In this document: piece by piece, positions 1-11,416 of the stretch
How positions within the stretch are numbered: the first letter of the stretch is position 1
Layout of the letters: the number at the start of each line of letters is the position of its first letter
Source: a virus
Taxonomy: Duplodnaviria > Heunggongvirae > Uroviricota > Caudoviricetes
IMG/VR virus record: IMGVR_UViG_2541047168_000023
Location: 1-11,416 of that record
Reading direction: 5' to 3' (one strand)
Length of the DNA stretch: 11,416 bases
Translations under genes and position numbers: made by a program
The notes under the pieces: model-generated
Seen by the model: only the letters and a program-made list of their open reading frames with translations
Told to the model about the DNA's origin: nothing
The model's database searches: none

Positions 1-174
1 CAACTCCGGGAGCCGTGATTATGGCATTCAGGCTCTGCTAAAAATGCCAGATAACATTCCGGCCTCCCCTGATTCAGGTTATAAATGACACAATATCTTG
101 ACAACACCCGTCACTGTCTGTCAGAAAATATACCGCCAGGCATAAGTATCATGTGAAATCCAACTATCCTTCTG

Positions 175-217
175 AGCCAGCACCTCTCCACCGAAAGTCA
201 GTGCTGGCTGTTTTTTT
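175..217 (+). terminator. Candidate intrinsic terminator: 9-bp stem, long loop, T-run
   Basis: AGCCAGCAC (175-183) pairs with GTGCTGGCT (201-209), followed by G + TTTTTTT (211-217). The 17-nt loop is longer than typical, which lowers confidence. No ORF of 60 aa or more lies upstream in the window. Confidence 0.3.
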
Positions 218-423
218 CCTTAATAAAGCATCTGTAACTGGTTGTTGTTCTGCGGGTTCTGTTCTTCGTTGACATGAGGTTGCCCCGTATTCAGTGTCGC
301 TGATTTGTATTGTCTGAAGTTGTTTTTACGTTAAGTTGATGCAGATCAATTAATACGATACCTGCGTCATAATTAATTATTTGACGTGGTTTGATGGCGT
401 AGATGCACGTTGTGACATGTAGA

Positions 424-438
424 TGATAATTATTATCA
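424..438. promoter_or_regulatory. Perfect 7-1-7 inverted repeat TGATAAT-T-ATTATCA (Fur-box-like)
   Basis: Read directly: TGATAAT (424-430), T (431), ATTATCA (432-438), inside an AT-rich stretch about 40 bp upstream of cosN. It matches the 7-1-7 description of Fur boxes (TGATAATnATTATCA); function is unknown. Confidence 0.3.
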
Positions 439-474
439 TTTTGCGGGTCCTTTCCGGCGATCCGACAGGTTACG

Positions 475-486
475 GGGCGGCGACCT
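475..486. other. cosN: cosN 12-nt cohesive-end sequence (lambda-type cos site)
   Basis: GGGCGGCGACCT at 475-486, preceded by CGACAGGTTACG and followed by CGCGGGTTTTCGCTATTTATGAAAATTTTCCGG. From recollection this matches the phage lambda cos junction (right end ...CAGGTTACG, left end GGGCGGCGACCTCGCGGG...). The small terminase gene starts about 185 bp downstream, as in lambda. Confidence 0.85.
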
Positions 487-520
487 CGCGGGTTTTCGCT
501 ATTTATGAAAATTTTCCGGG

Positions 521-632
521 ATCCATGTCCGGTTTCTCTTCAAGTTAACTATATGAAAAATATAAAAACAGGTCTTCTGTGAACCGGACATGAACAAAAA
601 ACAGACATGTAAACCGGACATGACCGGTTTTG
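521..632 (+). promoter_or_regulatory. cosB: Putative cosB: three copies of ATGTCCGGTT flanking an AT-rich IHF-like segment
   Basis: ATGTCCGGTT at 525-534 (+ orientation) and its reverse complement AACCGGACAT at 582-591 and 612-621. An AT-rich stretch (about 545-570, TATATGAAAAATATAAAAACAGG) lies between the first and second copies. This mirrors lambda cosB (R3, I1, R2, R1, with R3 inverted), but the repeat sequence differs from what I recall of the lambda R sites. Confidence 0.5.
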
Positions 633-669
633 TTGTGATTGTGAGGTGAGAGTTTTTGCGAGGTGAGGA

Positions 670-1179
670 GTGGCTACGCAGACTGAAGTTGCCAGGCATT
701 TAAGTCTGACCGATCGCCAGCTTCGCAGATTGCAGAAATTGCCGGGTGCCCCGATATCGAATAAGCGAGGGCAACTGGATCTGGATGCCTGGCGCGATTT
801 TTACATATCGTATCTGAGGAGAAGTAAAAACGATGTGCCTGATGGCGATAGCGAAGACGACTATGAGGAGAAATTGCTTATTGCCAGATGGGAACTGACA
901 GCAGAACAGGCTGTTACACAGCAGTTAAAAAATGAGGTGTCAAAAGGAAAACTGATTGACACCGGGTTCTGTATTTTTGCCCTCAGTAAGCTGGCAATGG
1001 CGTTATCCAGTACGCTTGATTCCATCCCTTTATCCATGCAGCGACAGTTTCCTGATTTAACACCGCGCCATCTTGACCATCTGAAAACCCTTATTGCTAA
1101 GGGGGCAAATCAGTGTGCGCGGGCAGGGGATAAATTACCGGATTTACTTGATGAATATATCAGAGCAACAACTGAATAA
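670..1179 (+). CDS. Nu1: Terminase small subunit (Nu1 family)
   Basis: 169-aa ORF from GTG 670, immediately after cos and overlapping the start of A. The C-terminal half resembles lambda Nu1 as I recall it (FCxFxLS..., PLSxQRxFP, LxEYI). The N-terminal region (TQTEVARHLSLTDRQLRRLQ) is HTH-like but unlike lambda Nu1. Confidence 0.85.
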   Translation: MATQTEVARHLSLTDRQLRRLQKLPGAPISNKRGQLDLDAWRDFYISYLRRSKNDVPDGDSEDDYEEKLLIARWELTAEQAVTQQLKNEVSKGKLIDTGFCIFALSKLAMALSSTLDSIPLSMQRQFPDLTPRHLDHLKTLIAKGANQCARAGDKLPDLLDEYIRATTE

Positions 1180-3080
1180 TATGATGAGCGCTGTCACAAC
1201 TGCATTACAGCCCCTGATAAGGGCATTGCCGGTGACGCCAGTTGAATGGGCTGATCAAAATTATTATCTGCCTAAAGAATCTTCATATGGTGAGGGCGAA
1301 TGGAAAACGCTGCCATTCCAGATCGCCATCATGAACAGTATGGGGAATGATCAGATCCGCACTGTTAATCTGATTAAATCTGCCCGTGTTGGCTATACAA
1401 AGATGTTGCTGGGGGGGGGGCGGGTATTTTATTGAGCATAAATCCCGAAACAGTCTGCTTTTTCAGCCCACGGATTCTGCCGCTGAAGATTTTATGAAGT
1501 CTCACGTGGAGGCGACGATTCGGAACGTGCCATGCCTGAAAGACCTTTCCCCATGGCTGGGTCGTAAACATCGTGACAATACTCTCACGCTGAAACGCTT
1601 TTCATCGGGCGTCGGTTTCTGGTGCCTGGGCGGCGCTGCCGCCAAAAACTACCGTGAAAAATCCGTTGACGTGGTCTGCTATGACGAACTTTCCTCGTTC
1701 GAGCCGGATGTCGAAAAAGAGGGCTCGCCAACCCTGCTGGGGGATAAGCGTATTGAGGGGTCGGTGTGGCCAAAATCCATTCGCGGCTCGACGCCTAAAA
1801 TCAAAGGCACCTGCCAGATCGAAAAAGCCGCTAACGAGTCGGCGCATTTTATGCGTTTTTATGTGCCCTGCCCGCACTGTGGGGAGGCGCAGTATCTGAA
1901 ATTTGGCGATGAGTCCACGCCTTTTGGGCTTAAATGGGAGAAGGACAGCCCTGAAAGTGTTTTCTACCTCTGTGAACATCATGGCTGCGTGATCCATCAG
2001 TCTGAACTGGACCAGAGCAACGGGCGGTGGATCTGTGAAAACACGGGCATGTGGACCCGTGACGGTCTGACGTTTTTCAGCGCCCGGGGTGATGAAATTC
2101 CGCCGCCGCGCTCCATCATGTTCCATATCTGGACGGCGTACAGTCCGTTCACCACCTGGGTACAGATTGTCTATGACTGGCTGGATGCACTGAAAGATCC
2201 CAACGGCCTGAAAACCTTTGTGAACACCACGCTGGGCGAGACCTGGGAAGAGGCCGTGGGCGAAAAACTCGATCACCAGGTACTGATGGATAAGGTGGTG
2301 CGTTACACGGCGGCGGTGCCTGCCCGGGTGGTTTATCTGACGGCGGGCATTGACTCGCAGCGAAACCGTTTTGAGATGTATGTCTGGGGATGGGCTCCGG
2401 GAGAGGAAGCCTTTCTGGTGGATAAAATCATCATTATGGGGCGTCCTGATGAGGAAGAGACGCTGTTACGTGTGGATGCGGCGATCAACAAAAAATACCG
2501 CCATGCGGATGGCACCGAAATGACTATTTCCCGTGTCTGCTGGGACACCGGGGGGATCGATGGTGAAATTGTTTATCAGAGATCAAAAAAACACGGTGTT
2601 TTCCGGGTGCTGCCGGTAAAAGGCGCATCTGTCTATGGCAAGCCGGTGATCACCATGCCAAAAACCCGCAATCAGCGGGGCGTGTATCTGTGTGAAGTGG
2701 GAACGGACACCGCAAAAGAAATTCTCTATGCCCGTATGAAAGCCGATCCCTCGCCTGCGGATGAAGCCACGTCGTATGCCATCCGTTTTCCTGATGATCC
2801 GGAGATTTTTTCGCAGACAGAGGCGCAGCAACTGGTGGCGGAAGAGCTGGTGGAGAAGTGGGAAAAAGGAAAGATGCGTCTGCTGTGGGATAACAAAAAG
2901 CGGCGTAACGAAGCGCTGGACTGCCTGGTGTATGCCTACGCGGCATTACGTGTGTCCGTGCAACGCTGGCAGCTTGATCTGGCTGTACTGGCAAAATCCC
3001 GGGAAGAAGAGACGACCCGGCCAACCCTGAAAGAACTGGCAGCGAAGCTGTCCGGAGGAGTGAATGGTTACAGTCGCTGA
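1151..3080 (+). pseudogene. A: Terminase large subunit (gpA homolog), frame interrupted at a G10 tract (real frameshift or homopolymer error)
   Basis: Two ORFs in different frames (1094-1435 and 1386-3080) together give a full-length gpA homolog. The likely start is ATG 1151 (MNISEQQL..., compare lambda MNISNSQV...). The frames switch at GGGGGGGGGG (1411-1420); removing one G gives ...GYTKMLLGGGGYFIEHK..., collinear with lambda ...GYSKMLLGVYAYFIEHK... Downstream motifs are conserved (KNYREKSVDV, FVNTTLGETWE, KRRNEALDC). Confidence 0.8.
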
Positions 3081-3270
3081 ACTGCAGGCGCTGCGTCAGG
3101 CGCGCCTTGATTTATTAACCGGTAAACGGGTGGTGTCTGTCCAGAAAGATGGTCGCAGAATTGAATATACGGCGGCTTCTCTGGATGAGCTTAACCGGGC
3201 GATCAATGATGCGGAGTCGGTACTGGGGACAACCCGGCGTCGCCGTCGTCCGCTGGGAGTGAGGTTATGA
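3064..3270 (+). CDS. W: Head-tail joining (head completion) protein gpW
   Basis: 68 aa, with LxxGKRVxxVQKDGRRxE[FY]TA and a C-terminal RRRR motif as in lambda gpW. The start overlaps the end of A and the stop overlaps the B start (ATGA at 3267-3270). Confidence 0.85.
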   Translation: MVTVAELQALRQARLDLLTGKRVVSVQKDGRRIEYTAASLDELNRAINDAESVLGTTRRRRRPLGVRL

Positions 3271-4859
3271 AACGAACGCCTGTCCTGATTGATGTGAACG
3301 GCGTTCCGCTTCGTGAGAGTCTCAGCTACAACGGGGGCGGTGCAGGATTTGGCGGGCAAATGGCGGAGTGGTTGCCACCGGCGCAGAGTGCCGATGCGGC
3401 CCTGCTGCCCGCGTTGCGTCTGGGGAATGCCCGGGCAGATGATCTGGTGCGCAATAACGGAATAGCGGCCAATGCGGTGGCACTGCATAAGGATCACATT
3501 GTCGGGCATATGTTTCTTATCAGCTACCGTCCGAACTGGCGCTGGCTGGGGATGCGGGAGACCGCAGCAAAAAGCTTTGTCGATGAGGTGGAGGCGGCCT
3601 GGTCGGAATACGCCGAAGGGATGTCTGGCGAGATCGACGTGGAAGGAAAACGCACGTTCACGGAATTTATCCGTGAAGGTGTGGGCGTTCATGCGTTTAA
3701 CGGCGAAATCTTTGTGCAGCCGGTCTGGGATACGGAAACCACGCAGTTATTCCGTACGCGTTTTAAAGCCGTGAGTCCGAAACGGGTGGACACGCCAGGA
3801 CACGGTATGGGGAACCGTTTTCTGCGGGCCGGGGTGGAGGTCGATCGATATGGCCGTGCCGTTGCGTACCATATCTGTGAGGATGATTTTCCTCGCTCCG
3901 GGAGTGGACGATGGGAACGGATCCCGCGTGAACTTCCCACCGGGCGTCCGGCCATGCTGCATATTTTCGAGCCGGTGGAGGACGGGCAGACCCGTGGGGC
4001 CAACCAGTTTTACAGCGTCATGGAACGGCTGAAGATGCTCGATTCCCTGCAGGCAACACAGCTTCAGTCGGCCATTGTGAAAGCCATGTATGCAGCGACG
4101 ATTGAAAGTGACCTTGATACCGAAAAGGCCTTTGAATATATCGCCGGTGCGCCGCAGGGGCAGAAGGATAATCCGCTTATTAATATTCTGGAGAAGTTCT
4201 CCAGCTGGTATGACACGAATAACGTGACGCTGGGTGGTGTCAAAATTCCGCACCTTTTCCCCGGGGATGATCTGAAACTACAGACTGCGCAGGATTCAGA
4301 CAATGGATTTTCGGCGCTTGAACAGGCGCTGCTGCGGTATATCGCCGCCGGTCTTGGCGTTTCCTACGAACAGTTGTCCCGTGATTACTCGAAGGTCAGT
4401 TATTCAAGTGCCAGGGCCTCTGCCAATGAGTCGTGGCGCTATTTTATGGGGCGGCGAAAATTTATTGCGGCCCGGCTGGCCACGCAGATGTTTTCCTACT
4501 GGCTGGAAGAGGCACTTCTTCGGGGGATTATCCGTCCGCCACGGGCGCGTTTTGATTTTTATCAGGCGCGATCAGCCTGGTCACGGGCAGAGTGGATTGG
4601 TGCCGGAAGAATGGCCATTGACGGGCTCAAGGAGGTTCAGGAATCGGTGATGCGCATTGAGGCCGGACTGAGCACGTATGAGAAAGAGCCGGCGCTGATG
4701 GGCGAGGATTATCAGGACATTTTCCGCCAGCAGGTCAGGGAATCTGCAGAGCGGCAAAAAGCCGGACTCTCACGTCCGGTGTGGATAGCGCAGGCGTATC
4801 AGCAGCAGATAGCGGAGAGTCGCAGGCCGGAAGAGGAGACAACACCCCGTGAGACGTAA
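3267..4859 (+). CDS. B: Portal protein gpB
   Basis: 530 aa with long stretches matching my recollection of lambda gpB (ARADDLVRNNG, FEPVEDGQTRGAN, LQSAIVKAMYAATIES, LRYIAAGLGVSYEQLSR, GRMAIDGLKEVQE). Position after W is as in lambda. Confidence 0.9.
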   Translation: MKRTPVLIDVNGVPLRESLSYNGGGAGFGGQMAEWLPPAQSADAALLPALRLGNARADDLVRNNGIAANAVALHKDHIVGHMFLISYRPNWRWLGMRETAAKSFVDEVEAAWSEYAEGMSGEIDVEGKRTFTEFIREGVGVHAFNGEIFVQPVWDTETTQLFRTRFKAVSPKRVDTPGHGMGNRFLRAGVEVDRYGRAVAYHICEDDFPRSGSGRWERIPRELPTGRPAMLHIFEPVEDGQTRGANQFYSVMERLKMLDSLQATQLQSAIVKAMYAATIESDLDTEKAFEYIAGAPQGQKDNPLINILEKFSSWYDTNNVTLGGVKIPHLFPGDDLKLQTAQDSDNGFSALEQALLRYIAAGLGVSYEQLSRDYSKVSYSSARASANESWRYFMGRRKFIAARLATQMFSYWLEEALLRGIIRPPRARFDFYQARSAWSRAEWIGAGRMAIDGLKEVQESVMRIEAGLSTYEKEPALMGEDYQDIFRQQVRESAERQKAGLSRPVWIAQAYQQQIAESRRPEEETTPRET

Positions 4860-6354
4860 TCTTTCACACATTATTGCCGCAGCATTCAATGAACCGCTGC
4901 TTCTGGAGCCCGCCTATGCGCGGGTTTTCTTTTGCGCGCTCGGGCGCGAGATGGGGGCAGCAAGTCTTTCGGTACCACAGCAGCAGGTACAGCTTGATGC
5001 TCCCGGAATGCTGGCTGAAACGGACGAGTACATGGCCGGAGGTAAACGACCGGCCCGTGTTTACCGGGTGGTGAACGGTATTGCTGTACTGCCGGTGACC
5101 GGCACGCTGGTGCACCGGCTGGGGGGTATGCGGCCATTTTCCGGAATGACAGGCTATGACGGCATTGTCGCCTGTCTTCAGCAGGCAATGGCGGATAGCC
5201 AGGTGCGGGGCGTACTGCTGGACATTGACAGTCCGGGCGGGCAGGCCGCCGGCGCGTTTGACTGCGCTGACATGATTTACCGCCTCCGTCAGCAGAAGCC
5301 GGTCTGGGCACTGTGCAATGACACGGCCTGTTCTGCAGCCATGCTGCTGGCGTCGGCCTGCTCCCGACGGCTGGTTACCCAGACATCCCGTATCGGCTCC
5401 ATTGGCGTGATGATGAGCCATGTCAGCTATGCCGGTCATCTGGCGCAGGCCGGTGTGGATATCACGCTGATTTACTCAGGGGCGCACAAGGTGGATGGCA
5501 ATCAGTTTGAAGCCTTACCGGCAGAGGTTCGCCAGAACATGCAGCAGCGCATTGATGCGGCGCGCCGGATGTTTGCCGAAAAAGTGGCCATGTTTACCGG
5601 TCTGTCTGTTGATGCCGTCACGGGAACAGAGGCCGCCGTTTTTGAAGGTCAGTCCGGCATTGATGCCGGGCTGGCGGATGAATTAGTCAATGCGTCGGAT
5701 GCCATCAGTGTGATGGCCACGGCGCTGAACAGTAATGTCAGAGGAGGCACTATGCCGCAATTAACTGCAACGGAAGCCGCCGCGCAGGAGAACCAGCGAG
5801 TGATGGGGATCCTGACATGCCAGGAAGCGAAAGGACGTGAACAGCTTGCCACGATGCTGGCAGGACAACAGGGCATGAGCGTTGAACAGGCCCGGGCGAT
5901 TCTGGCCGCGGCGGCACCGCAGCAGCCGGTGGCATCCACGCAGAGTGAAGCCGATCGCATTATGGCGTGTGAAGAAGCGAACGGTCGTGAACAACTGGCG
6001 GCAACGCTGGCGGCGATGCCGGAGATGACGGTGGAAAAAGCCCGCCCGATCCTGGCTGCTTCACCGCAGGCGGATGCCGGACCCTCACTCCGTGATCAGA
6101 TCATGGCACTGGATGAGGCAAAAGGGGCTGAGGCGCAGGCTGAACAGCTGGCTGCCTGCCCGGGAATGACTGTGGAGAGCGCCCGGGCTGTGCTGGCTGC
6201 GGGATCAGGTAAGGCAGAACCGGTCTCTGCATCCACAACCGCCCTGTTTGAACGCATCATGGCGAACCATTCACCGGCTGCGGTACAGGGTGGCGTGCCA
6301 CAGACGTCAGCAGACGGTGATGCGGACGTGAAAATGCTCATGGCCATGCCATGA
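4849..6354 (+). CDS. C: Prohead protease/scaffold gpC (S49/SppA-like peptidase domain), with an expanded repeat at the C terminus; a nested Nu3-like scaffold product is possible
   Basis: 501 aa, GTG start overlapping the end of B. The N-terminal two-thirds match lambda gpC as recalled (AFNEPLLLEPAYARVFFCAL, MTGY, GAFDCAD, KPVWAL, RRLVTQT, GSIGVMM, ITLIYSG.HKVDGN, IDAGLADELVN). The C-terminal third carries tandem repeats (separate repeat feature). Confidence 0.9.
   Translation: MRRNLSHIIAAAFNEPLLLEPAYARVFFCALGREMGAASLSVPQQQVQLDAPGMLAETDEYMAGGKRPARVYRVVNGIAVLPVTGTLVHRLGGMRPFSGMTGYDGIVACLQQAMADSQVRGVLLDIDSPGGQAAGAFDCADMIYRLRQQKPVWALCNDTACSAAMLLASACSRRLVTQTSRIGSIGVMMSHVSYAGHLAQAGVDITLIYSGAHKVDGNQFEALPAEVRQNMQQRIDAARRMFAEKVAMFTGLSVDAVTGTEAAVFEGQSGIDAGLADELVNASDAISVMATALNSNVRGGTMPQLTATEAAAQENQRVMGILTCQEAKGREQLATMLAGQQGMSVEQARAILAAAAPQQPVASTQSEADRIMACEEANGREQLAATLAAMPEMTVEKARPILAASPQADAGPSLRDQIMALDEAKGAEAQAEQLAACPGMTVESARAVLAAGSGKAEPVSASTTALFERIMANHSPAAVQGGVPQTSADGDADVKMLMAMP
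5797..6300 (+). repeat. In-frame tandem repeats (about 141-159 bp, 3 full copies plus 1 partial) in the C-terminal region of C
   Basis: Units begin at 5797 (RVMGILTCQEAKGREQLATMLAGQQGMSVEQARAILAAAAPQ), 5956 (RIMACEEANGREQLAATLAAMPEMTVEKARPILAASPQ) and 6097 (QIMALDEAKGAEAQAEQLAACPGMTVESARAVLAAGSG), with a partial copy at 6253 (RIMANH...). As I recall, lambda gpC has a single such unit (RIMGILNCEEAHGREEQARVLAETPGMTVKTARRILAAAPQ). Confidence 0.65.
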
Positions 6355-6390
6355 AGTCAGTGCTGACCATCAACAGGAGGTTTTTACAAT

Positions 6391-6738
6391 ATGGTAACGA
6401 AAAACATCACTGAACAGCGTGCGGAAGTACGTATTTTTGCCGGTAATGATCCGGCTCATACCGCCACAGGCAGCAGCGGGATTTCCTCGGCAACACCGGC
6501 ACTGACGCCCCTGATGCTGGATGAAGCCAGCGGGAAACTGGTGGTCTGGGACGGACAGAAAGCCGGTAGTGCAGTTGGCATACTGGTACTGCCGCTTGAA
6601 GGCACAGAGACGGTACTGACCTATTACAAGTCGGGGACCTTTGCGACGGAGGCAATCCGCTGGCCTGAAAGTGTGGATGAACACAAAAAGGCAAATGCCT
6701 TTGCCGGCAGTGCCCTGAGTCACGCGGCGCTGCCGTAA
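6391..6738 (+). CDS. D: Head decoration protein gpD
   Basis: 115 aa with RBS AGGAGG (6375-6380). It shares DPAHTAT, TPLMLD, KLVxWDG, AVGIL, YKSGTF and AFAG with lambda gpD as recalled. Confidence 0.9.
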   Translation: MVTKNITEQRAEVRIFAGNDPAHTATGSSGISSATPALTPLMLDEASGKLVVWDGQKAGSAVGILVLPLEGTETVLTYYKSGTFATEAIRWPESVDEHKKANAFAGSALSHAALP

Positions 6739-6795
6739 CACGTTATCAGGCCACCGCGGTGGCCTGACTGATTTCTGAATGAAAGGAACTGATTT

Positions 6796-7062
6796 ATGGG
6801 ATTGTTTACGACCCGCCAGTTACTCGGTTATACCGAACAAAAAGTGAAATTTCGTGCGCTGTTTCTGGAGCTGTTTTTCCGCCGTACGGTGAATTTCCAT
6901 ACCGAAGAGGTGATGCTGGACAAAATTACCGGAAAAACGCCGGTGGCGGCCTATGTCTCCCCGGTTGTTGAAGGAAAAGTGCTGCGTCATCGCGGTGGTG
7001 AAACCCGCGTGTTACGTCCGGGCTACGTCAAGCCGAAACACGAATTCCCCTGGAGCCGGTAA
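6796..7062 (+). pseudogene. E: Truncated major capsid protein gene (E'), N-terminal ~84 codons only
   Basis: MGLFTTRQLLGYTEQKVKFRALFLELFF...PGYVKPKHE tracks lambda gpE (MSMYTTAQLL...KFKFDPLFLRLFF...PGYVKPKHE) up to 7044. It then reads FPWSR and stops at 7060-7062. Lambda gpE is about 341 aa. Confidence 0.8.
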
Positions 7063-7784
7063 AAGGAGCCGGTACCACCCTGTGGGTTTATAACGGTCAG
7101 GGTGACGCCTATGCAAACCCGTTGTCAGACGATGACTGGCAGCGACTGGCTAAGGTGAAGGATCTGACGCCGGGCGAGATGACGGCAGAATCCTACGATG
7201 ATAACTACCTGGATGATGAAGACGCGGACTGGACCGCGACCGGGCAGGGGCAGAAATCTGCAGGTGATACCAGTTTTACGCTGGCCTGGAAACCGGGAGA
7301 GGAAGGCCAGAAAGGGCTTATAGGCTGGTTTGAAAGCGGCGATGTCCGGGCCTATAAAATCCGTTTTCCGAATGGCACGGTGGATGTGTTTCGTGGCTGG
7401 GTCAGCAGTATCGGTAAGGCCGTGACGGCGAAAGAAGTGATCACCCGCACGGTGAAAGTCACTAACGTGGGTAAACCTTCTGTAGCGGAAGAACGCAGCA
7501 AAATTACGCCGGTCAGTGCGATTAAGGTGACGCCGACATCCGGTACGGTGGCAAAAGGGAAAACAACCACCCTGACGGTTTCTTTTGAGCCGGAAAGTGC
7601 AACAGACAAGACGTTCAGAGCGGTTTCCGCCGATCCGTCGAAAGCCACCATTAGTGTGAAAGATATGACAATTACGGTAAACGGCGTGGCGACAGGTAAG
7701 GTGCAGATCCCTGTGGTGAGCGGAAATGGTCAGTTCGCCGCAGTGGCTGAAGTCACCGTTACTGAAGCGGGCGCTGCAGGGTAA
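7056..7784 (+). pseudogene. V: Major tail protein V lacking its first ~8 codons and native start (V')
   Basis: In the frame of ORF 7122-7784, the sequence from about 7056 reads [41 protein letters not shown]...[40 protein letters not shown]..., closely matching lambda gpV from about residue 9. This frame is closed by TGA at 6999-7001 and has no ATG/GTG before TTG 7122. Confidence 0.8.
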
Positions 7785-7797
7785 ACGGAGGTAATAC

Positions 7798-8220
7798 ATG
7801 TTTCTGAAAACAGAACAATTTGAATATAACGGTGTGTCCGTCACGCTTTCCGAATTGTCTGCGCTGCAGCGGTTTGATTATATAAAGTTTGTTTCAGACG
7901 CAGAACAACAGGAGACAACGAAGCATGATGTCGTGCACATTAACCAGCGATATCTGGAAACGGCATCCCTGCTTGTGGCGATGTCGCTATGGCATTCCCA
8001 TTCCCTCAAAGGCACTCTGGCCTCTCCGGAGACAGAGATGCAGCAGATCCGCCGTGAAGTGATGCTGGGATGGCCTGCTGATGCACTGAATCAGGCAACG
8101 AACCGGGTGCTTTATCTTTCAGGTATGCTGGATAACCGGCACGATGCCGATCCTGAACCAACCGGGAAAACAGAAGCGACTGAGCCGGTAACATCAAAAA
8201 AGCATTCGAAGGCGAGCTGA
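7798..8220 (+). CDS. G: Tail assembly chaperone gpG
   Basis: 140 aa, RBS GGAGG upstream. MFLKTEQFEYNGVSVTLSELSALQR...LLVAMSLWH... matches lambda gpG (MFLKTESFEHNGVTVTLSELSALQR...FLVAMSLWH...) as recalled. Confidence 0.9.
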   Translation: MFLKTEQFEYNGVSVTLSELSALQRFDYIKFVSDAEQQETTKHDVVHINQRYLETASLLVAMSLWHSHSLKGTLASPETEMQQIRREVMLGWPADALNQATNRVLYLSGMLDNRHDADPEPTGKTEATEPVTSKKHSKAS

Positions 8221-8555
8221 ACTTTGTCCTGAAACTGGCGCGTGAGATGGAGAGAGCCGACTGGCGCGCCATGCTTGCCGGGATGACATCCACCGAATAT
8301 GCCGACTGGCGACGTTTTTACTGCACGCATTATTTTCAGGATACCCAGCTGGATATGCATTTTTCCGGGCTGATGTACGCCGTACTCAGCCTGTTTTTTT
8401 GCGATCCGGATATGCATCCGGCGGATTTCAGCCTGTTCGCTCCGGAGGCAGAGGAAGGACAGGCGGAGACGCCGGACGAAAATGATGTACTGATGCAGAA
8501 GGCGGCGGGCCTCGCCGGTGGAGTCCGTTTCGGGGAGGAGGGAAGGAGGTTGTGA
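7798..8555 (+). CDS. T: Tail assembly protein G-T (fusion produced by a -1 frameshift near 8196-8202)
   Basis: The T-homologous ORF (8247-8555 in the track) has no RBS or independent context and sits in the -1 frame relative to G. It continues without a stop from the slippery site at about 8199. Confidence 0.75.
8196..8202 (+). promoter_or_regulatory. Programmed -1 ribosomal frameshift slippery heptamer A-AAA-AAG (G to G-T)
   Basis: In the G frame the codons are TCA AAA AAG, six codons before the G stop. The -1 frame from here is open to 8555 and encodes a gpT homolog (MERADWRAMLAGMTSTEYADW...DPDMHP...VLMQKAAGLAGGVRFG). The G/G-T arrangement is conserved in lambda-like tail modules. Confidence 0.7.
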
Positions 8556-8598
8556 CAGTTATTGATGGTATCAGAGGACATTTCAGGAGGTGACCACG

Positions 8599-11244
8599 AT
8601 GGCAGGTAATTTTGCCGATCTGACAGCCGTGCTGACACTGGATTCTGCCCGTTTTTCTGAAGAGGCAGCGCGGGTAAAAAAAGAGCTGGGTGAAACCAGT
8701 GCGCTTGCTGATTTGATGTCCGGGAAAGTCAGTCAGTCTTTCAGAAAACAGGCTGATGCTGCTGAGCAGAGTCTGAGCCGACAGGCGCTGGCTGCACAAA
8801 AAGCCGGGATATCAGTCGGACAGTATAAGGCTGCCATGCGCACACTGCCCGCACAGTTCACGGATATTGTCACTCAGCTTGCCGGTGGTCAGAATCCCTT
8901 CCTTATCATGCTGCAGCAGGGGGGGCAGATCAGCGATTCATTCGGTGGACCGCTCAGCCTGCTTACCCTGCTGAAGGAGGAACTTCTCGGGATCAGGGAT
9001 GCCTCTGAATCATCAGAGGAGTCGCTGTCAGATACGGCAAATGCACTGGCTGAAAATGCCCGGAATGCCGGTGAGCTGGGACGATTTATGTCGGTGGCCC
9101 GTGTGGCGGCAGGTGGCGGGGTTGCCGTACTGGCCGCGCTTGCTGCCGCCGCCTGGCAGGCAGAGCAGGCTGACCGGGCCTTATTGCGTTCACTGACCCT
9201 GACCGGAGGGGCTGCTGCCACCACAACGGCAGAATTGTGGAAAATGGCCGGGGTGATCAGCGATGAAGCCGGTGGTGGTATCAGACAGGCGGCAGAAAAT
9301 CTGGCCCGTCTGGCAGAAAGCGGGAAATATACCGCCGGGCAGCTACGGATCATGGGGGAAACCTCTCAGAGATGGCTGCAGACGGTGGGGGACGATGCCG
9401 GGAAGGTGGAAAAAGCCTTTGAAGGGATTGCAGCAGATCCGGTGAAGGCGCTGGCCTCCCTGAATCAGCAGTATAACTTCCTGAGCGTTTCCCAGTTACG
9501 CCATATTGATGAGCTTGAGCGCACGAAAGGTAAACAGGCTGCGGTGACGGAGGCGATGTCCCTGTTTGCGGATGTCATGAATGCACGTCTGGAGCAACTT
9601 GATAAAGCGGCCACGCCGGTGGAAAAAATCTGGGACGATGTTAAAACCTGGACTTCTGACGCATGGGCATGGATAGGTGATCATACACTGGGGGCACTCA
9701 GTCTGATCACTGACGTGGTGGCAGGAACCGTTGAACAGGTGAAGCTGCTGCTTGTGCAGGGGGATCTGGCGCTGGCTGAATTTATTCAGTCAGCCTGGGA
9801 AACGACAAAGAATGTGCCCGGCGTTGGTGCGTTGTTTGGTGAACTGGCAGAAGAGAACCGCGTATTTATTGAGAAAACAAAACGTGATGAACTGGCGCTG
9901 AGAAAATCCATTGCGGAACGGGATGCGCGTATACGCCAGGGGGAAATGGGGTACATCAACCGCTCGCGTGCAACAGGCGTCAGCAAAGGTCCGGGGCAGC
10001 AGGAAGCCGTCAGCCGTCTGGCTGAAGAGCTGACAGGTAAAAAGCATACATCACCGAAAACGCGCTCTGCCGGGGAGAGGGAAGAGGAGCAGGCAAGAGA
10101 GGCTCTGCTTGCCCTTGAAGCTGAGCTCAGGACGCTGGAAAAACACAGCGGTGCGAATGAGAAAATCAGCCGGCAGCGCCGTGATTTATGGAAAGCGGAA
10201 AGTCAGTATGCGGTCCTGAAAGAGGCTGCCACGAAACGACAGTTATCTGAGCAGGAAAAATCCCTGCTGGCGCATAAAGACGAGACGCTGGAGTACAAAC
10301 GCCAGCTGGCTGAGCTGGGCGACAAGGTTGAATACCAGAAACGCCTGAATGAGCTGGCACAGCAGGCGGTGCGGTTTGAAGAGCAGCAGAGCGCGAAGCA
10401 GGCCGCCATCAGCGCAAAAGCCCGCGGTCTCACTGACCGTCAGGCGCAGCGGGAGTCTGAAGCGCAGCGTCTTCGGGACGTGTACGGTGATAATCCGGCT
10501 GCGCTGGCGAAGGCCACATCGGCACTGAAGAACACCAGGTCTGCGGAGGAGCAGCTTCGTGGAAGCTGGATGGCCGGGCTGAAGTCCGGCTGGGGCGAGT
10601 GGGCGGAAAGTGCGACGGACAGTTTTTCGCAGGTTAAAAGTGCTGCCACGCAGACCTTTGACGGTATTGCACAGAATATGGCGGCGATGCTGACCGGTGC
10701 AGAGGCAGACTGGCGGGGATTCACCCGTTCGGTGCTGTCCATGATGACAGAAATCCTGCTTAAACAGGCCATGGTGGGCATTGTCGGGCGTATCGGCAGC
10801 GCCATTGGCGGTGCTTTCGGTGGTGGTGCATCTGCTTCCTCGGGGACGGCCATTCAGGCTGCGGCGGCGAACTTCCATTTCGCGACCGGAGGATTTACGG
10901 GGACGGGCGGCAAATATGAGCCTGCGGGGATAGTTCACCGCGGGGAGTTTGTTTTCACGAAAGAGGCAACCAGCCGGATAGGTGTGGGGAATCTTTACCG
11001 TCTGATGCGCGGCTATGCGGAAGGTGGTTATGTGGGTGGTGCCGGAAGTCCGGCGCAGATGCGGCGGACGGAAGGCATTAATTTTAATCAGAACAATCAC
11101 GTGGTGATTCAGAACGACGGCTCCAACGGACAGGCGGGGCCGCAGCTGATGAAGGCGGTGTATGACATGGCCCGCAAGGGGGCGCAGGATGAGATTCAGG
11201 CGCAGATGCGTGATGGCGGCGTCTTTTCCGGAGGCAGGCGATGA
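8599..11244 (+). CDS. H: Tail tape measure protein gpH
   Basis: About 880 aa. RBS AGGAGG (8585-8590) precedes ATG 8599, which I prefer over GTG 8590. Long stretches match lambda gpH as recalled (SLSRQALAAQKAGISVGQYKAAMR.LPAQFTD, LRTLEKH.GANEKIS.QRRDLWKAESQ.AVL.EAA, SVLSMMTEILLKQAMVGIVG, HFATGGFTGTGGKYEPAGIVHRGEFVFTKEATSRIGVGNLYRLMRGYA). Confidence 0.92.
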   Translation: MAGNFADLTAVLTLDSARFSEEAARVKKELGETSALADLMSGKVSQSFRKQADAAEQSLSRQALAAQKAGISVGQYKAAMRTLPAQFTDIVTQLAGGQNPFLIMLQQGGQISDSFGGPLSLLTLLKEELLGIRDASESSEESLSDTANALAENARNAGELGRFMSVARVAAGGGVAVLAALAAAAWQAEQADRALLRSLTLTGGAAATTTAELWKMAGVISDEAGGGIRQAAENLARLAESGKYTAGQLRIMGETSQRWLQTVGDDAGKVEKAFEGIAADPVKALASLNQQYNFLSVSQLRHIDELERTKGKQAAVTEAMSLFADVMNARLEQLDKAATPVEKIWDDVKTWTSDAWAWIGDHTLGALSLITDVVAGTVEQVKLLLVQGDLALAEFIQSAWETTKNVPGVGALFGELAEENRVFIEKTKRDELALRKSIAERDARIRQGEMGYINRSRATGVSKGPGQQEAVSRLAEELTGKKHTSPKTRSAGEREEEQAREALLALEAELRTLEKHSGANEKISRQRRDLWKAESQYAVLKEAATKRQLSEQEKSLLAHKDETLEYKRQLAELGDKVEYQKRLNELAQQAVRFEEQQSAKQAAISAKARGLTDRQAQRESEAQRLRDVYGDNPAALAKATSALKNTRSAEEQLRGSWMAGLKSGWGEWAESATDSFSQVKSAATQTFDGIAQNMAAMLTGAEADWRGFTRSVLSMMTEILLKQAMVGIVGRIGSAIGGAFGGGASASSGTAIQAAAANFHFATGGFTGTGGKYEPAGIVHRGEFVFTKEATSRIGVGNLYRLMRGYAEGGYVGGAGSPAQMRRTEGINFNQNNHVVIQNDGSNGQAGPQLMKAVYDMARKGAQDEIQAQMRDGGVFSGGRR

Positions 11245-11416
11245 AAACCTTTCGCTGGAAAGTGAAGCCGGATATGGAGGTGAACTCGCAGCCATCGGTG
11301 CGTGAAGTGCGTTTTGGTGACGGGTATTCGCAGCGTATGGCGGCGGGGCTGAATGCTGACCTGAAAACATACCGTGTGACGCTTTCCGTGACCCGGGAGG
11401 AGGCCCGACATCTGGA
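11241..11416 (+). CDS. M: Minor tail protein gpM (5' part; runs off the window end)
   Basis: ATG 11241 overlaps the H stop (ATGA). Translation MKTFRWKVKPDMEVNSQPSVREVRFGDGYSQRMAAGLNADLKTYRVTLSV... matches lambda gpM (MKTFRWKVKP...VRFGDGYSQR...LKTY.VTLSV) as recalled. It is absent from the ORF track only because no stop falls inside the window. Confidence 0.85.
   Translation, partial: MKTFRWKVKPDMEVNSQPSVREVRFGDGYSQRMAAGLNADLKTYRVTLSVTREEARHL

Follow-up and report, generated by a model that had tools for sequence, protein, structure and literature searches.

The window, an 11,416-nt stretch of DNA, is a segment of a lambdoid prophage of the E. coli O157 type. Its tail genes follow the order V-G-T-H, in which the overlapping G/T pair sits between the tail tube gene and the tape measure gene (Table 1). 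The G product can be assigned to the tail assembly chaperones. It scores 117.5 bits against the equivalog model TIGR01674 (phage_lambda_G; cutoff 74.45, 3.8e-34) and 119 bits against PF06894 (1.4e-34), and its zero-frame translation ends at the TGA at 8218-8220. The T frame gives 172.4 bits against TIGR01715 (phage_lam_T; cutoff 77.35, 2.9e-51) and also matches PF06223.

Table 1. Features of the V-G-T-H region (positions are those of the window).
Feature	Position	Strand	Basis
Major tail tube gene V, 5' neighbour	7032-7784	+	PF16461 (2.2e-69), Big_2
Gene G, tail assembly chaperone, 140 aa	7798-8220	+	ORF, translation, TIGR01674/PF06894; named G in AP000400
Shift window, G and T frames both open	8184-8217	+	T-frame translation, register listing
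Slippery heptamer A-AAA-AAG	8196-8202	+	Sequence read; G-frame codons TCA (8194-8196), AAA (8197-8199), AAG (8200-8202)
T-frame coding sequence after the shift, 117 codons and stop	8202-8555	+	Translation, TIGR01715, PF06223
Candidate RNA structure	8211-8279	+	Outer 7-bp helix GGCGAGC (8211-8217) with GCUUGCC (8273-8279), enclosing hairpin 8236-8271
First T-frame ATG	8247-8249	+	Sequence; database T start
Tape measure gene H, 3' neighbour	8599-11244	+	PF06791, PF09718; annotated in AP000400

The T frame is the -1 frame with respect to G. A TGA at 8181-8183 closes it; from 8184 onward it stays open up to its stop at 8553-8555. A productive -1 shift out of G is possible at 11 register positions only, from 8184 to 8214. 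The full listing of these positions contains one canonical heptamer, A-AAA-AAG, placed in the X-XXY-YYZ register relative to the G frame as counted from the ATG at 7798. This agrees with the first-pass annotation of this DNA, which had named it the single canonical heptamer near the end of G.

The bare 7-mer AAAAAAG is not enriched in the window, where both strands together hold two matches for 1.99 expected, so what makes the site notable is its register, its position and its homology. Canonical heptamers in register number 10 in the ~3119 codons of the + strand genes, which corresponds to ~0.035 expected per 11 codons, and the one at the end of G is the sole X-XXA-AAG among the 10. A second in-register heptamer with the sequence A-AAA-AAA (seven A) occurs at 8676-8682, in codons 26-28 of H. 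It is probably incidental, as a -1 shift at this place would stop after KKRAG and yield an abortive product.

The heptamer of the window aligns codon for codon with the G-GGA-AAG of lambda. The end of G reads CCT GTT TCT GCG GGA AAG TGT TCG ACG GTG AGC TGA in lambda and CCG GTA ACA TCA AAA AAG CAT TCG AAG GCG AGC TGA in the window. The first-pass annotation was right to name G-GGA-AAG as the lambda heptamer, and it correctly described the present site as a variant within a conserved recoding event. The lambda site is the documented place of the shift, with the zero frame kept at ~96% and a G:GT ratio of ~30:1 (PMC3296357, PMC5009743). The production of both G and G-T, with G in large excess, and the need for both in tail assembly are known for lambda only (PMC3296357, PMC5009743).

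The beginning of T was considered next to its database annotation. Public records (AP000400, ON416862 and RefSeq genomes) either begin T at ATG 8247, which gives a protein of 102 aa, or flag it as partial. The TIGR01715 profile begins at nt 8214, 11 codons 5' of this ATG, and the T-frame codons from 8184 to 8246 include no ATG, GTG or TTG. In lambda, a GTG directly after the slip site had served as the start in the old ORF-based annotation, whereas the window has GCA there. The T-frame residues that link heptamer and ATG form a conserved peptide, which reads KKAFEGELNFVLKLARE in the window, GKVFDGELSFALKLARE in lambda and GKIFEGELNFALMLARE in the Salmonella relatives, and the residues shared in this comparison are K-A/V-F-E/D-G-E-L-N/S-F-V/A-L-K-L-A-R-E. 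Taken together, the start of the profile, the lack of a start codon and the conserved peptide mean that the conserved N-terminus of T can be reached only via G.

Independent initiation of T at ATG 8247, with a 102-aa product and an incidental heptamer, would dispense with any shift. The ATG is in frame and it is the T start annotated in AP000400, ON416862 and the RefSeq genomes. However, such a protein would lack the 11 profile codons that precede the ATG, together with the residues conserved with lambda and the Salmonella relatives. The bases before the ATG (CUGGCGCGUGAG) are also without a spaced Shine-Dalgarno sequence. Moreover, lambda shares the internal ATG, and yet its gpGT is documented to arise by frameshifting (PMC3296357, PMC5009743). 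We therefore regard independent initiation as very improbable. The earlier statement that T has no start of its own holds as far as the first 15 conserved T-frame codons past the shift and has to be corrected for the rest of the frame, where ATG 8247 exists.

Judged from the sequence, a -1 ribosomal slip from G is the most likely way into T and would give G (140 aa) and G-T (252 aa). This had also been proposed in the first-pass annotation, and it is borne out by the gene order V-G-T-H, the families of both frames and the exact positional match with the lambda site. The predicted fusion of 252 aa has the junction ...EPVTSKK-AFEGELNF..., and the corresponding junction peptide would be ...VTSKKAFEGELNF... 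/ ...EPVTSKKAFEGELNFVLK.

The conservation of the slip site was followed in G-T junctions taken from IMG/VR contigs, from species-representative genomes and from contigs encoding distant G proteins. This survey set comprises 31 distinct junction sequences of 107 nt. The same codon position holds a heptamer in 31/31, and the invariant part is the A-AAR lysine slip (tRNA-Lys). The lambda type, G-GGA-AAG, is found in 13 of the 31 junctions. A-AAA-AAG is found in 10, which include the O157 type and a second lineage with a G only 44-50% identical, and it is retained in every close relative surveyed. G-GAA-AAG accounts for seven junctions (from Kluyvera, Trabulsiella, Superficieibacter and others) and G-GGA-AAA for one, from Salmonella.

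The codon before the heptamer varies in its amino acid, and its third base tracks the heptamer class: TCA, GCA or GTA precede AAA-AAG, and GCG or GTG precede GGA-AAG. This is what selection on a seven-base slip site predicts. The G-GAA-AAG class, one substitution away from the site of lambda, suggests a possible route between the heptamer classes. G-GAA-AAG itself is non-canonical; after the shift, the P-site tRNA-Glu would face GGA.

The scan of genome contigs gave little extra diversity, as many of the matches were lambda DNA in unrelated assemblies. Contigs with a lambda-type junction were met in assemblies of Neobacillus, Pseudomonas, Shewanella, Kitasatospora, Paenibacillus, Leeuwenhoekiella, Pseudoxanthomonas and others. 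They match the G of the window at 41%, the value of lambda G itself. Most are of low coverage and some measure ~48 kb. We read these contigs as contamination with lambda control DNA.

Protein evidence for the G-T of this phage was searched for and none was found; the public records list G and T as separate genes. An exact look-up of the 252-aa fusion encoded in the window showed it to be absent from the protein collection. The VT1-Sakai version of this fusion is present there, and its only source is a pair of assemblies with A7 in place of A6 (L204 and L205; GCA_008711395.1 and GCA_003742765.3; run at 1899-1905 in both). In these assemblies, G and T fall into one frame and a 252-aa fusion is annotated. 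The A7 of L205 is likely an assembly error, and this assembly has several other broken genes. The VT1-Sakai, ASU11 and RefSeq O157 records give separate entries for G and for a T that is truncated or called "partial", instead of G plus a G-T joined by slippage, and the correct 252-aa product (junction TSKK-AFEGEL) is consequently missing from protein databases. Its annotation would be the practical value of the present analysis.

A run of six A could also be lengthened during transcription. The RNA polymerase would then add one A in the A6, and the ribosome would read through without slipping. Such a run is indeed indel-prone at the DNA or assembly level, as the two public A7 assemblies illustrate. 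However, the relatives with G-GGA-AAG, G-GAA-AAG and G-GGA-AAA have A runs of only 3-4, so that the conserved mechanism cannot rest on a homopolymer. In addition, productive realignment as published needs >7 A (PMC3711429). As the explanation for G-T, transcriptional slippage thus has very little probability, and at the A6 of this particular site it may make a minor contribution.

The heptamer had further been labelled as dnaX-type. The label holds only for the seven bases A-AAA-AAG. In dnaX, a Shine-Dalgarno-like stimulator lies upstream, a stem-loop follows ~6 nt downstream (5-9 nt), and a shift of ~50% leads to a shorter product. In contrast, the product in the window would grow through the shift, from 140 aa to 252 aa, and the expected efficiency is low. 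As for a close stem-loop, the first 60 nt downstream show no structure, and a longer-range helix is an uncertain candidate. A Shine-Dalgarno-like element is absent 6-17 nt upstream, where positions 8179-8190 (ACUGAGCCGGUA) include no GGAG, GAGG or AGGA. Sharma et al. scored this element "N" both for the lambda gpG cluster (G_GGA_AAG_4) and for the Sp9 ECs1801 cluster (A_AAA_AAG_25) (PMC4066793).

Folding of the 60 nt downstream of the heptamer, which the first-pass annotation had suggested as a check, revealed no stimulatory structure. Both the first 40 nt (z +1.7) and the first 60 nt (z +1.6) show less structure than their shuffles. A longer span of 80 nt folds at an MFE of -30.4 kcal/mol (z -2.0). 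The outer helix of the candidate structure in this region (Table 1) begins 8 nt after the heptamer and closes a 55-nt insert. The inner hairpin alone reaches a z of -4.6, in comparison with -2.8 for its equivalent in lambda.

Over the 31 sequences, 95.6% of the cells are paired, and 99.5% in the outer helix, values to be read with the facts that the region is protein-coding, that the 5' strand of the helix is coding in both frames, that T is highly conserved at the nucleotide level and that the structure was derived from a member sequence. One compensatory pair, from G-C to A-U, is present in seven sequences of one clade, next to several changes on one side only. Two of the G-GAA-AAG junctions, L198 and L199, have a disrupted inner helix. 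Because of the coding constraint, the conservation of T and the derivation of the structure from one of the sequences, we treat the outer helix as a lead. It is an uncertain, modelled candidate for a stimulator, and we do not claim it as one. For the lambda gpG cluster, Sharma et al. scored a conserved downstream hairpin, and they judged most phage hairpins unconvincing (PMC4066793).

A programmed -1 ribosomal frameshift at A-AAA-AAG, producing lambda-type tail assembly chaperones G and G-T, is in our view the very probable reading of this locus. For most ribosomes on G, translation would end at TGA 8218 with the release of gpG (140 aa). A smaller share would slip back by one base with AAA in the P site and AAG in the A site, when both tRNA-Lys(mnm5s2UUU) would re-pair with AAA AAA in a tandem slip. 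Reading would resume with GCA TTC GAA... in the T frame and continue to 8555, resulting in the 252-aa G-T (...TSKK-AFEGEL...). If lambda is a guide, both proteins would coat the tape measure protein H through their G part, and G-T would recruit the tail tube protein V through its T part, so that the frequency of the slip would fix a high G:G-T ratio. Neither protein would be found in the virion.

The frequency that can be expected here was deduced from published reporters. In the E. coli measurements of Sharma et al. 2014, which covered all heptamers, A_AAA_AAG and G_GGA_AAG behave much alike (PMC4066793 supplement). Their efficiencies are 0.29% and 0.28% with no stimulator, 4.3% and 3.8% with the IS911 stimulators, and 39% and 43% with the IS3 pseudoknot, respectively (PMC4066793). 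In view of these nearly equal values, an exchange between the two heptamers is expected to be near neutral for efficiency, and the slip frequency of the window is probably a few per cent.

A wider scheme can be built on the long-range helix, and we consider it rather unlikely. The lambda G family would swap the P-site half of the heptamer (A-AAA, G-GGA or G-GAA) and keep A-AAR together with the helix, which would act as a stimulator and set the G:G-T ratio jointly with the heptamer. An all-lysine site would then be more sensitive than that of lambda to the thiolation of U34 in tRNA-Lys (TusA/MnmA). If the helix is a real stimulator, tail assembly of Stx-type phages with A-AAA-AAG would depend more strongly on the TusA/MnmA pathway.

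Between 7700 and 8700, the window shares 99.9% identity with VT1-Sakai (AP000400) and CP-1639. Several Stx2-converting phages, the induced phage ASU11 and O157:H7 chromosomes match this region at 99-100%. From V through H, the identity to the Stx1-type prophage of strain TR01 is 99.3%. Upstream of ~7037, the window diverges from the VT1-Sakai/TR01 Stx1-type prophage, and its head genes (terminase-portal-protease) are 66-68% identical. The window is thus a mosaic of 1-7036 and 7037-11416, and its terminase-portal-protease part matches another O157 prophage locus. G and T of this other locus measure 432 and 414 nt; in the window, G has 423 nt and T, counted from ATG 8247, 309 nt. When the whole window was compared with complete E. 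coli genomes, none of the records listed matched it colinearly at 100% throughout.

At the junction of the two parts (~7037-7045), a major capsid gene of the lambda E kind (6796-7062) breaks off after its first ~82 codons and continues, out of frame, into V. This E'-'V deletion has removed the first ~5 codons of V with the start codon, as compared to the intact V of TR01. The rest of E, FI, FII, Z and U, which together comprise ~2.6 kb in relatives, are deleted. An identical E-V junction is present in 300 complete E. coli genomes, indicating a natural deletion that became fixed in a defective prophage. The terL gene is split in two frames (ORFs 1094-1435 and 1386-3080) at a run of G10 (1411-1420), and its counterpart in TR01 is marked as frameshifted by PGAP. 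Either a mutation or a sequencing artefact could account for this homopolymer indel. The matching O157 locus likewise has a frameshifted terL, with ISEc8 adjoining terS.

This copy is part of a decayed prophage, in which the encoded signal is intact and its present use doubtful. As the prophage is defective, the slip site may no longer be under selection here. We see roughly even chances that it is by now a non-functional relic with unused tail genes, a possibility that concerns its present use and not the encoded mechanism. The loss of most of the major capsid gene through U and of the start codon of V, the frameshift of terL at G10, the ISEc8 beside terS in the matching O157 locus, and the E-V junction fixed in 300 complete genomes all speak for such a relic. 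On the other hand, G and the T frame are intact, with a G-T product one residue off that of VT1-Sakai, and phages obtained by induction, ASU11 among them, carry the same G-T sequence.

The programmed -1 frameshift of lambda G/G-T was reportedly described by Levin, Hendrix & Casjens in 1993 and treated again by Xu, Hendrix & Duda in 2004, 2013 and 2014. The encoded site of the window has much in common with it. The shift falls at Lys135 of a 140-aa G, the stop of G follows five codons on, the order V-G-T-H and the families of both frames are the same, and the downstream nucleotides are highly similar. The A-site slip, from AAG to AAA by tRNA-Lys, is also shared. The two differ in the P site, which is GGA (Gly) in lambda and AAA (Lys) in the window, so that both slipping tRNAs would be tRNA-Lys here, and in the junction, which is ...AGK-V... 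in lambda and ...SKK-A... here. G is just 41% identical to lambda G, and G-T measures 279 aa in lambda in comparison with 252 aa in the window because the C-terminus of T is shortened.

This C-terminus deserves a separate description. The T frame of the window stops early (...GVRFGEEGRRL*) with respect to lambda and many close relatives, in which G-T has 279-287 aa. A gap of ~43 nt appears at this place in the pairwise alignment (region 8530-8600). Relic codons of the usual C-terminal ISGGV motif are recognizable at 8580-8592, past the T stop and just before the start of H. VT1-Sakai and the induced phage ASU11 have the same early-ending T.

The O157 prophage protein ECs1801 of Sp9 (cluster A_AAA_AAG_25) is a further system with the same heptamer. 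It is a tail assembly chaperone with A-AAA-AAG just 5' of the tape measure gene, and its -1 PRF was considered "safely inferred" by Sharma et al. 2014 (PMC4066793 Table S4). It differs in its length of 124 aa, in a stop directly after the heptamer (...AGA AAA AAG TAG) and in a differently organised head-tail module. An identification of ECs1801 as the gene of the window was rejected, since the Sakai annotation and the sequence make it a different, 124-aa chaperone of Sp9.

Another close known system is VT1-Sakai (Sp15 of E. coli O157:H7 Sakai), with 99.9% identity over V'-G-T-H' and an identical heptamer and context. One residue of T is different, REMGRA there and REMERA here. Z, U and an intact V are present in VT1-Sakai, whereas the upstream head and tail genes of the window are deleted or decayed. 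The A-AAA-AAG variant as such was already known: where Lynch et al. cite Xu, Hendrix & Duda 2004, AAAAAAG is given as the G-T type shift site of VT1-Sakai (PMC3483164), and the variant was thereby listed, as a prediction, for a near-identical phage two decades ago. The locus described here adds one further case to a recoding event understood since 1993 and surveyed in 2004.
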